Sequence record: AF322020.1
Direction: 5' to 3' (one strand)
Length of the DNA: 531 bases
Source of the DNA: a phage
Within the stretch, counting starts at the first letter, position 1. Every line of letters starts with the position of its first letter. The notes below the pieces were generated by a model. The model saw nothing but the letters and a program-made list of their open reading frames with translations. It had not been told where the DNA came from and did no database searches. Shown here piece after piece: positions 1 through 531 of the stretch. The translations under genes and the position numbers were made by a program.

Positions 1-6
1 AGGAGG
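1..6 (+). promoter_or_regulatory. Shine-Dalgarno-like AGGAGG hexamer; relevant only if the source is prokaryotic or organellar
   Basis: Seen directly: aggagg at 1-6, followed by taac and ATG at 11-13 (4-nt spacer, shorter than typical). A second purine run, gaggag at 17-22, lies 7 nt upstream of an ATG at 30-32. Both downstream ORFs are only 8-9 codons long. Confidence 0.15.
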
Positions 7-10
7 TAAC

Positions 11-37
11 ATGCAAGAGGAGAATTGGGATGTGTAA
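11..37 (+). other. 8-codon mini-ORF (MQEENWDV) whose TAA stop overlaps the first in-frame ATG of the longer ORF (taATG at 35-39)
   Basis: Hand translation: atg caa gag gag aat tgg gat gtg taa. The stop at 35-37 shares its last base with the ATG at 37-39, which is in frame with the 25-240 ORF. This is a coupling-like geometry but cannot be told apart from chance at this length. Confidence 0.12.
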
Positions 38-240
38 TGTTGGATATGGAGAAGGTTGAACCTCAGTGTTGTACAAGGATTAACCAAAGTAAAAATTTTG
101 ATATAGGCGTGTGTCAGCTCTCTCGCCCTCGCCCTCGCCGGATTTTCCCCATATGGGGCCGCGCTGCGGTTGGCTTGGGGATTGGGCTAGGCTGGGCCGT
201 CTTCAACCTGCTGCCGCAGGAAGCTCGATGGGTTGGCTGA
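25..240 (+). CDS. Hypothetical 71-aa ORF (TTG start; first in-frame ATG at 37), probably a chance open frame
   Basis: This is the ORF supplied in the six-frame track; I confirmed the frame and the TGA stop at 238-240. Arguments against a real gene: it starts on TTG, the segment SRPRPRR is encoded by the (CTCGCC)3 microsatellite, it spans a 12-bp palindrome and a sharp compositional boundary near 120, and I recognise no motif in the peptide. The window may also be eukaryotic, where an isolated 71-codon frame means little. Confidence 0.15.
   Translation: MGCVMLDMEKVEPQCCTRINQSKNFDIGVCQLSRPRPRRIFPIWGRAAVGLGIGLGWAVFNLLPQEARWVG
61..78 (+). repeat. Copy 1 of recurring 18-nt motif CCTYAGTGTTKKACAAGG (cctcagtgttgtacaagg), containing the 8-bp palindrome TTGTACAA at 69-76
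   Basis: Ungapped comparison by eye: 16/18 identical to 303-320 and 14/18 to 373-390. Confidence 0.8.
122..139. repeat. Perfect hexanucleotide microsatellite (CTCGCC)x3
   Basis: Seen directly: ctcgcc ctcgcc ctcgcc at 122-139, flanked by a partial copy upstream (ctct at 118-121) and g140. Confidence 0.95.
147..158. other. Perfect 12-bp palindrome CCCCATATGGGG (contains CATATG)
   Basis: Seen directly: ccccatatgggg at 147-158 is its own reverse complement. It could form a 4-bp GC stem with an ATAT loop, or serve as a dyad-symmetric binding site. Function is unknown. Confidence 0.85.
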
Positions 241-253
241 GGGTTGCCGAGGG
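155..253 (+). other. G-tract-rich segment with a recurring GGTTGGCT octamer (168-175 and 231-238)
   Basis: G runs of 3 or more at 155-158, 177-180, 184-186, 195-197, 230-232, 241-243 and 251-253. The spacing does not fit a canonical G-quadruplex (G3+N1-7)x4 cleanly, because the first loop would be 18 nt. Confidence 0.5.
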
Positions 254-257
254 CTGC

Positions 258-275
258 GCTTAGTGGTACACAAGT
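258..275 (+). repeat. Degenerate copy of the 18-nt motif (gcttagtggtacacaagt)
   Basis: 13/18 ungapped identity to 303-320, with the shared core cttagtg...acaag. This is weaker than the other three copies. Confidence 0.45.
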
Positions 276-302
276 AGAACGCCTAGGAAGCGCTAGGGCA
301 CG

Positions 303-320
303 CCTTAGTGTTGGACAAGG
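303..320 (+). repeat. Copy 2 of the 18-nt motif (ccttagtgttggacaagg)
   Basis: 16/18 identical to 61-78 and 15/18 to 373-390. Confidence 0.8.
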
Positions 321-323
321 TGA

Positions 324-336
324 TTGCCTTAGGCAA
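324..336. other. 13-bp interrupted palindrome TTGCCT-T-AGGCAA (core gccttaggc, contains CCTNAGG)
   Basis: Seen directly: ttgcct (324-329), t (330), aggcaa (331-336); the two arms are reverse complements. Confidence 0.8.
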
Positions 337-368
337 CCGTTTAGGGCTTACACAGGCCGTTTTAGGGC
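337..368 (+). repeat. Pair of direct repeats CCGTTTAGGGC (337-347) and CCGTTTTAGGGC (357-368), each containing TTAGGG
   Basis: Seen directly. Both exact TTAGGG hexamers in the window lie here, at 341-346 and 362-367, with the same flanks (ccgtt...c). A related CTAGGG sits at 293-298, and CCTAGG, CCTTAG and GCTTAG variants occur between 258 and 332. Confidence 0.8.
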
Positions 369-372
369 AATT

Positions 373-390
373 CCTGAGTGTTTGACAGGG
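373..390 (+). repeat. Copy 3 of the 18-nt motif (cctgagtgtttgacaggg), containing TTGACA at 382-387
   Basis: 15/18 identical to 303-320 and 14/18 to 61-78. Confidence 0.75.
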
Positions 391-410
391 TGTGAGGGTG
401 TGGGCTATCT

Positions 411-478
411 GTTCGTTTCGCTACGCTTNACTCACTGCTCCTCACTTCGCTGNCGCTCGCTACACTGCCTGTCGNGTA
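411..478 (+). repeat. C/T-rich tract with loose ~10-nt periodicity (ctcactgctc / ctcacttcgc / tgNcgctcgc / tacactgcct); recurring TCGCT and CTCACT; GC skew opposite to the upstream block
   Basis: Hand count for 411-480: C about 26, G about 13, A about 7. CTCACT occurs at 431-436 and 441-446; TCGCT at 418-422 and 447-451, and within CGCTCGCT at 454-461. Three N calls (429, 453, 475) make the exact sequence uncertain. Confidence 0.5.
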
Positions 479-531
479 CCTTANGNTATTCCTTGAGGGA
501 TGGCTTANGNTANCCTTANNGGGCTACCTTA
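479..531 (+). repeat. ~24-nt-period tandem repeat (about 2.2 copies) of a CCTTA-N-G-N-TA...CCTT..GGG unit; low-quality read end
   Basis: Unit 1 (479-502) is ccttaNgNtattccttgagggatg and unit 2 (503-526) is gcttaNgNtaNccttaNNgggcta; cctta at 527-531 restarts the unit. The N calls at 484/486 and 508/510 fall at identical phase in the two units. Seven of the window's ten Ns lie in this feature. Confidence 0.55.

Follow-up and report, generated by a model that had tools for sequence, protein, structure and literature searches.

Same-strand terminal repeats at a concatemer-type junction of Escherichia phage K1E as candidate packaging sites

What are the similar 18-nt motifs that recur, all in one orientation, in the 531-nt phage DNA of sequence record AF322020.1 (this whole stretch is called the window below), and why do they lie where they do? 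The window belongs to Escherichia phage K1E, and we read it as a concatemer-type junction, the place where the replicated genome gets cut for packaging. The motifs are the K1E instance of the terminal short repeats known from phages of the T7 supergroup: they are real, non-random and ordinary for this group. As to their role, we lean, tentatively, towards sites that would be recognized during DNA maturation and packaging.

A search of a phage collection matched positions 1-407 of the window to the last 408 bp of phage K1E (NC_007637.1) at 99.8% identity. K1E is an SP6-like coliphage (Autographiviridae, Molineuxvirinae, Vectrevirus) with a genome of 45,251 bp; a search of a plasmid collection with the window gave no match. 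The first 288 bp of the K1E genome are identical to its last 288 bp and constitute a direct terminal repeat (DTR). Window positions 1-407 correspond to K1E 44844-45251 and positions 121-531 to K1E 1-412 (~412 bp). Because the genome ends are identical and the window runs from the right end through a single copy of this exact repeat, which falls within the 150-300 bp range at both linear ends, into the left end, we regard it as a read-through of a concatemer junction. The DTR measures 234 bp in K1-5, 174 bp in SP6 and 160 bp in T7. The window differs from the finished K1E genome by one T missing after position 332 and by 10 Ns, all downstream of position 428, and is otherwise the same; the Ns (region 429-520) resolve to C, T, T, G, T, G, T, G, G and T. 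As the window lacks that T, the heptamer at 327-333 reads CCTTAGG, where both DTR copies of K1E have CCTTAGTG. The T gap at 332/333 and the Ns at 429-520 resemble the low-quality end of a single sequencing read over the junction.

The sequence-only reading had reported three 18-mers sharing 14-16 of 18 positions and a weaker fourth, on one strand and irregularly spaced, and all of this was confirmed. Copies 1, 2 and 3 (61-78, 303-320 and 373-390; Table 1) are pairwise identical at 16/18, 15/18 and 14/18 positions, copy 4 (258-275) shares 13/18 with copy 2, and the start-to-start spacing of copies 1, 4, 2 and 3 on the plus strand is 197, 45 and 70 nt. The count of three to four copies stood for the four that had been listed, but one further member within the window (341-358) had been overlooked; with it, the spacing becomes 197, 45, 38 and 32 nt. 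The suspicion that the similarity exceeds chance was borne out as well: at ≤ 3 mismatches the window holds three matches, versus a mean of 0.00 in 200 dinucleotide-preserving shuffles, of which 0/200 reach three. Sequence quality does not account for the copies, as the finished K1E genome has the same bases at every one of them and the differences described above touch none. The compositional boundary that the motif had been seen to cross is the left DTR edge, 120/121. The suggestion of a diverged tandem repeat, in contrast, found no support: the program TRF (minimum score 30) gives only (CTCGCC)3 and (AGGGTGTG)2 in the window and no tandem array of 18-mers. Iteron-like or operator-like protein-binding sites, also suggested there, are plausible candidates in that copy 2 is conserved to the degree of the cut sites, although the spacing is not regular as in iterons.

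Within the whole K1E genome, the 18-mer (≤ 3 mismatches) has five matches versus 0.12 expected, and all are terminal: each of the two DTR copies holds two, and the fifth precedes the right DTR by 60 bp. The short dispersed repeat family that had been considered is therefore real, but restricted to the genome ends. The 18-mers are the long form, CTTAGTG-N3-4-ACA(A)GG, of a family of same-strand heptamers, CTTAG(T/G), which occupy the terminal ~1.3 kb of K1E. CTTAGTG occurs 24 times in K1E (7.8 expected); 13 of these 24 are at the ends, those all on the plus strand. CTTAG is found 14 times on the plus strand and 0 times on the minus strand of the first 500 bp, and 21 versus 1 times in the 1.36-kb non-coding junction. 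The family thus has the properties of the SRL/SRR-type arrays of T7, a short unit on one strand that is concentrated in non-coding DNA around and inside the repeat. Its short form makes up a ~12-nt tandem array just after the DTR (K1E left end 358-485, period ~12, reported by TRF as 23-24). When the gapped long-form pattern is used, K1E has 15 matches, 10 of them terminal, versus ~6 genome-wide in shuffles, and SP6 shows the same long-form layout. One long-form member, TTTAGTGTTGACACAGGC (K1E 708-725), overlaps the -35 hexamer of the early promoter, ~420 bp beyond the DTR, and shares 15/18 positions with the member at 341-358. A 14-mer scan of viral contigs returned mostly chance matches, with SP6-like loci accounting for only eight.

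Two look-alikes of the long form, CTTAGTGTACACAAGG and CTTAGTGTAATCCAAGG, lie upstream of the window at K1E 44797 and 44830. They flank (K1E 44790-44850) a 10-bp hairpin, AAGGGCAGAC/GTTTGCTCTT with loop TTAG, that follows the tailspike gene, and the second one overlaps a Shine-Dalgarno sequence at window positions 1-6, an arrangement kept in K1-5 and SP6. A terminator-like hairpin, GCCCTGTCTGCCTTAGTGTAGGCAGGGTCTTTTG, has the sole conserved internal CTTAGTG in its loop and is identical in sequence in K1E (16436-16468) and SP6 (14731-14763).

Table 1. Features of the 531-nt window and their conservation in 13 Vectreviruses (NIC06P3 excluded), given as the mean majority fraction and the percentage of invariant columns
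Feature	Position	Strand	Mean majority fraction	Invariant columns	Remark
Right-end unique DNA	1-120				Match to K1E right end
Long-form copy 1, CCTCAGTGTTGTACAAGG	61-78 (K1E 44904-44921)	+	0.79	33%	Right-end unique DNA, 42 bp before left DTR boundary
Left boundary block	79-158		0.92	72%	
AT-rich conserved block, TAACCAAAGTAAAAATTTTGATATAGGCGTGTGTCAGCTC	81-120	+			Directly before left DTR boundary
One copy of 288-bp DTR	121-407	+			Identical K1E ends
(CTCGCC)x3 at DTR start	122-139	+			TRF; as CTCG(C/G)CC repeats in K1-5 and SP6
Palindrome CCCCATATGGGG	147-158	+			From DTR position 27; kept in all aligned relatives
Left DTR interior	159-257		0.55	15%	
Weak long-form copy 4, GCTTAGTGGTACACAAGT	258-275	+	0.85	33%	13/18 to copy 2; 70% over 20 nt
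Two short-form repeats, CCTAGG (282-287) and GCTAGGG (292-298)	282-298	+			Sequence reading; nearly invariant in Vectrevirus
Long-form copy 2, CCTTAGTGTTGGACAAGG	303-320	+	0.94	78%	DTR interior, 87-104 bp before right DTR boundary
3' flank of copy 2	321-338		0.93	74%	
Short-form heptamer CCTTAGG	327-333	+			Holds the window's single indel
Further long-form member, TTTAGGGCTTACACAGGC	341-358 (K1E 45184)	+	0.79	44%	From a listing of heptamers with tails; conservation scored as 339-356
Long-form copy 3, CCTGAGTGTTTGACAGGG	373-390	+			Ends 17 bp before right DTR boundary
Copy 3, 5' half	373-381		0.76	33%	
Copy 3, 3' half, TTGACAGGG	382-390		0.99	89%	
G-rich (AGGGTGTG)x2	387-402	+			TRF; between copy 3 and cut site
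Right boundary block	391-415		0.93	64%	
ATCTGTT, class II pause/termination heptamer of T7-type RNA polymerases	407-413	+			Straddles right boundary 407/408
Left-end unique DNA	408-531				Match to K1E left end
Region after right boundary block	416-476		0.53	15%	
Start of post-DTR short-form array, CCTTAG(G/T) and a variant	479, 491, 503, 514, 527 (479-531)	+			Ns mask some bases

To see which of these elements are maintained, the junction was compared with those of K1-5, SP6, nine further Vectrevirus records, five IMG/VR contigs and two Klebsiella phages (L numbers below are our own handles). Window 81-157 and ~391-428 still have matches in Salmonella phages (including SP6), Klebsiella phages and Proteus phages, and subfamily-wide the only wide conservation is found in blocks at the two DTR boundaries. 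With the boundary marked by a slash, the left consensus is ...ACCAAAGTCAAAATTTTGATATAGGCGTGTGTCAGCTC/TCTCGCCCTCGCC...CCCCATA(T)GGGG and the right consensus is TTGACAG(G/C)GTG...GTGGGCTA/TCTGTTC. Proteus phage records end exactly at window position 120, and the block at 81-120 probably belongs to the left-end cleavage signal. At the right boundary, GGGCTATCTGTT is present in every relative examined. The ATCTGTT located there has only one other occurrence on the K1E plus strand (at 4580); it is not over-represented genome-wide, but specific in position, and pausing at this site is predicted from sequence. Class II pause/termination signals of T7 RNA polymerase, including the natural signal of the concatemer junction, share this heptamer, preceded by A, C or T, as a strictly conserved core (bioRxiv 10.64898/2026.02.12.705533). 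Since the number of G-rich AGGGTGTG units varies (window 387-405 region), several relatives (L036, PSK8, L055 and L020) have a canonical four-run G-quadruplex motif just upstream of the pause site, whereas K1E has three G-runs.

The copies themselves are unequally conserved. The core of copy 2, GACAAGGTGATT, is invariant in the aligned Vectrevirus junctions, and SP6, UAB_Phi78, L021, Koku and IME184 have a counterpart, CTTAGTG(T/A)GGGCCAAAGG, about as far from the right boundary; such a counterpart is similarly placed in Zindervirus and Ulipvirus. The position of copy 1 reads CCTTAGTGTTGTACAAGG in LF31P3 and L020, CCTTAGTCCTGTACAAGG in T205P4, L036 and L055, and GGTGGTCACAAAG or GGATGTACACAAAG in other relatives; the palindrome TTGTACAA of copy 1, to which the sequence-only reading had drawn attention, is lineage-specific and hence a poor candidate for a functional signal. 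At the position of copy 3, SP6 has GCTTGACAGCG and L021 has GCTTGCGCGG. The member at 341-358 is restricted to the K1E-type DTR allele, whereas the K1-5 type has CTTAGTGCATTCCTGAGG. Copy 4 corresponds in LF31P3, T205P4, PSK8 and L036 to ...GTACACAAGG, the right arm of an inverted repeat CCTTGTAC-N10-GTACACAAGG. Most relatives have an inverted repeat at this position (window 245-277; CTCCTTGTCTAGTACAAGGGAG in K1-5, CCTTGTACTAGCTTAGTAGTACACAAGG in CrRp3), of which K1E has lost the left arm; the inverted repeat may serve as a hairpin or as a binding site for a dimer. Based on this copy-by-copy pattern, we therefore infer that selection acts chiefly on copy 2 and on the half of copy 3 nearest the boundary, not on the 18-mer as a repeated unit. 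A co-variation of copies 1 and 2 between lineages, suggested by K1E versus SP6, was broken by EcoP_B, K1-5 and L107 and was discarded. Runs of poly-G and poly-C break the DTR region in the assemblies L142 (~862-880 and ~932-946) and L012 (NIC06P3, throughout) and are probably sequencing or assembly artefacts.

To our knowledge, the DNA features that are recognized by terminases of the T7/SP6 type are poorly defined. With somewhat less than an even chance, we propose that the copies are cis-acting recognition sites for the DNA maturation and packaging machinery, analogous to cosB of phage lambda. Four same-orientation long-form sites (258, 303, 341 and 373) lie 17-150 bp upstream of the right cut (407/408), and a fifth (61) precedes the left cut (120/121) by 42 bp. 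Several related sites beside a cut are the geometry of lambda cosB, which favors the packaging-site reading. Copy 2 (0.94) and the 3' half of copy 3 (0.99) are, moreover, conserved like the cut-site blocks, compared to 0.55 for the neighboring DTR. The long-form sites would fix the orientation in which the terminase, probably through its small subunit gp39, assembles on the first DNA to go into the capsid, and phage RNA polymerase paused at ATCTGTT would act alongside it. Selection would maintain a core made up of copy 2, the flank 3' to it and, of copy 3, the TTGACAGGG half; the remaining copies would be lineage-specific reiterations. The early genes, and hence the first-ejected end, are at the left, and T7-type DNA is expected to be packaged right end first; the sites would thus be situated on the DNA that should enter the capsid first.

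Several observations weigh against this proposal. The 18-mer is not conserved as a repeated unit: copy 1, the 5' half of copy 3 and the member at 341-358 are specific to the K1E-type allele, and the SP6 counterparts of the copies resemble one another weakly. The early promoter, ~420 bp outside the DTR, has a family member as its -35 region, and no packaging role would be expected there. The distances to the two cuts differ as well, with copy 1 at 42 bp from the left cut and copy 3 at 17 bp from the right cut. The ~75 bp upstream of the two cuts were considered as paralogues over their whole length, but their local alignment is no better than that of shuffles in 10/12 phages (z ~1; 3.2 in L036 and 2.7 in L055), and the similarity that remains is short, TTGAYA...GYGTGTG...GCTM/TCT, and is treated here as unproven. 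Finally, right-end-first packaging and the identity of the first-packaged side are carried over to K1E from T7-type phages and from a general rule (PMC2366019).

In favor of the packaging-site reading, the interiors of the DTR in this subfamily do host lineage-specific arrays of binding-site-like repeats, as a different same-strand array occupies the equivalent DTR position in a sister lineage. Klebsiella phage vB_Kpn_K22PH164C1 (L142 940-1165; OY979398.1 8396-8621) has six same-strand DnaA-box-like 9-mers, four times TGTGGATAA and twice TGTGGGTAA, between the conserved DTR-boundary blocks, with a spacing of 55, 21, 22, 20 and 33; 0/200 shuffles reach six. The segment is conserved in about 21 Klebsiella-type phages, and as it is present twice in the record of phage Kp7, where it lies at 63-244, it is inside the Kp7 DTR. 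No DnaA-box-like 9-mers are found at the K1E ends.

Among the alternatives, an appreciable though minor chance is left for copies without a sequence-specific function of their own, which would be by-products of duplication, slippage and gene conversion and would owe their conservation to hitch-hiking with the cut-site signals. The DTR does vary from 165 to 292 bp through indels and duplications, the G-rich box is doubled in L107, the count of AGGGTGTG differs between phages, and the right half of the DTR exists as two mosaic alleles, with copy 1, the member at 341-358 and the 5' half of copy 3 being allele-specific; the look-alikes at K1E 44797 and 44830 are accounted for by a hairpin arm and a Shine-Dalgarno sequence. 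Hitch-hiking fits less well with copy 2 and its flank, which are as invariant as the cleavage blocks while DNA on either side of the conserved zone diverges freely, and with the counterpart of copy 2 that keeps a similar position across genera whose DTRs are otherwise unalignable; the strict strand bias of CTTAG in the junction (21 versus 1) argues for selection on orientation. We think it unlikely, and slightly more so, that the copies are docking sites for host RNA polymerase (sigma-70), either -35-like elements or weak or decayed early promoters, paralogous to the real early promoter, that recruit or hold polymerase on the first DNA entering the cell. The early promoter (TTGACA-17-TACATT, K1E 715-743) matches 10/12 consensus positions and is the sole good sigma-70 promoter of the left end. 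Its -35 region reads CTTAGTGTTGACA(A/C)(A)GG in every relative and is one edit away from copy 2 in CC2, LI10P5, L036, L107 and Koku; copy 2 with its flank aligns with the K1-5 early promoter over ~35 nt. The exact TTGACA in copy 3 is invariant in the aligned Vectrevirus junctions and also present in SP6, all copies face rightward as early transcription does, and, depending on context, the concatemer-junction signal of T7 reportedly works as an E. coli promoter (bioRxiv 10.64898/2026.02.12.705533). Yet a sigma-70 scan of the window gives no -35/-10 pair at 16-18 bp. In copy 2 the hexamer is broken by a conserved extra G (TTGGACA), the SP6 counterpart GGGCCA is not -35-like, and L021 has TTGCGC where others have TTGACA. 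Downstream of copy 3 there is a single -10-like hexamer, TATCTG, without the final T; it follows TTGACA at 18, 20 or 22 bp, depending on the relative, because the number of AGGGTGTG units varies. The TTGACA of copy 3, singled out by the sequence-only reading, hence belongs to no recognizable sigma-70 promoter. A degenerate phage promoter was also rejected, as copy 4 resembles ATTTACTGGACACTATAGAAG only with two indels and no real phage promoter lies near the ends.

We hold it improbable that the copies form an origin-like element in the DTR, that is, iteron-like or host-factor sites that serve replication or the duplication of the terminal repeat. In favor are the secondary origins that T7 has close to its ends and the need to copy the terminal repeat by DNA synthesis during maturation. 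The AT-rich block at 81-108, between copy 1 and the GC-rich DTR, is placed like a DNA-unwinding element beside iterons, and the Klebsiella-type phages have their DnaA-box-like 9-mers at the equivalent position. However, the spacing of 197, 45, 38 and 32 nt is irregular, unlike that of phased iterons, no initiator gene is adjacent, DnaA boxes are absent from the K1E ends and the motif fits no host-factor consensus that we recognize. It seems very improbable that the copies act as RNA, forming hairpins, RNase III sites or structures that enhance pausing upstream of ATCTGTT when late transcription runs into the junction. The region does lie downstream of the last phage promoter (K1E 41717), the DTR folded as RNA slightly exceeds its shuffles in stability (z = -2.4), a predicted 17-bp hairpin has copy 2 at its tip, and elsewhere (K1E 16446, SP6 14744) a conserved terminator-like hairpin has CTTAGTG in its loop. 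The hairpin predicted at copy 2 in K1E was, however, not recovered by RNAalifold on 10 relatives, where a weak consensus fold has a covariation term of -0.35 kcal/mol and one compensated pair; changes in the 5' arm are uncompensated and the 3' arm is invariant. An Rfam search (E up to 10) returned only chance-level matches, none near threshold, and single-stranded DNA folding of the region is like that of shuffles (z = -0.57). Hardly any credence can be given to the repeats as coding sequence, even though NC_007637.1 annotates a 71-aa hypothetical protein with a TTG start (gene 48, PK1Ep62, window 25-240) that runs over copy 1 into the DTR. The same frame stops exactly at copy 1 in the closest relatives LF31P3 and L020 and is open in K1E because of a T-to-C change there (CCTCAG instead of CCTTAG, which holds the TAG); other relatives have frame-shifting indels, and copies 2-4 are outside gene 48 or in other frames. 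The annotation of gene 48 is probably spurious. A broader proposal, which we regard as speculative and improbable, is that a single factor (the small terminase subunit, or another phage or host protein) would bind CTTAGTG-N3-4-ACA(A)GG both in the DTR and at the early-promoter -35 region, marking the junction for cutting and packaging and shutting off or modulating early transcription by the host polymerase late in infection; the DnaA-box arrays of the Klebsiella phages would then reflect a lineage-specific swap to a different factor.

The genes neighboring the junction are the tailspike gene and small hypothetical open reading frames (ORFs). In window 1-37, AGGAGGTAACATG precedes an ORF of eight codons (MQEENWDV*). 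In K1-5, the small membrane-protein gene 49 begins with this same ribosome-binding site and ATG, and SP6 gp52 has the same position with a slightly different ribosome-binding site; given the common start with K1-5 gene 49, K1E, LF31P3 and L020 carry a truncated remnant of this gene. On the other side of the junction, the leader downstream of the host-type early promoter has TGCTCTTTAACAA at 893-905 of L002 (K1E left end), with CTTAGTGTAACCTATGTA after it. TGCTCTTTAACAA also occurs in the junctions of K1-5, SP6 (two copies), Koku and IME184, and we take this sequence to be identical to the E. coli rrn boxA antitermination sequence.

The comparison yields candidate cis elements that can be ranked by conservation, namely copy 2 with its flank, TTGACAGGG with the G-rich box, and the two boundary blocks. 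It also helps the annotation of SP6-like therapeutic phages, in which the DTR boundaries are placed and K1E gene 48 is flagged as spurious.

Among known systems, the ends of T7 are the closest match. Dunn and Studier reportedly described the T7 end repeats, called SRL/SRR, in 1983, and we know of no proven or assigned function for them; in this respect T7 and K1E are alike. Both have same-strand heptamers before, inside and arrayed after the direct terminal repeat (CCTAAAG in T7, CTTAG(T/G) in K1E). The 160-bp T7 repeat starts with TCTC, as the K1E DTR does, and has CCCCCATAGGGGG from position 26, where K1E has CCCCATATGGGG from position 27. ATCTGTT starts at the first base after the T7 repeat and straddles the boundary in K1E, preceded by T in both. 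Given this common layout of TCTC, palindrome, heptamers and ATCTGTT, we consider the junctions of K1E and T7 homologous, with the CTTAG(T/G) family corresponding to the T7 end repeats. The two differ in the core of the heptamer, in the 18-nt long form with its ACA(A)GG tail, of which no T7 equivalent was seen, and in the phage promoters phiOL and phiOR beside the T7 ends, as none is so placed in the SP6 group. The class II pause signal of the T7 concatemer junction corresponds to a neighbor of the K1E 18-mers, 17 bp downstream of copy 3, and not to the motif itself.

The other systems share parts of this picture. In lambda cosB, the sites R1-R3 beside the cut bind the small terminase subunit gpNu1, and as in K1E there are several related sites of ~16-18 bp, irregularly spaced over ~100-150 bp beside a terminase cut (PMC2366019). 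Lambda has cohesive ends where K1E has direct terminal repeats, the sequences are not similar, and K1E has a copy outside the junction, at the early promoter; binding is proven in lambda, whereas the K1E sites are candidates by position, orientation and conservation. The SP6-like sigma-70 early promoter has a -35 region (CTTAGTGTTGACA and its flanks) of the same family, 1-3 edits from copy 2 or 3, but the window copies have no -10 element at 16-18 bp and the hexamer of copy 2 is disrupted. Iterons of plasmid and phage origins are likewise direct units of 17-22 bp in one orientation beside an AT-rich stretch; the K1E copies differ from them in their irregular spacing, in having no adjacent initiator gene and in their location, which is a packaging junction and not a mapped origin.

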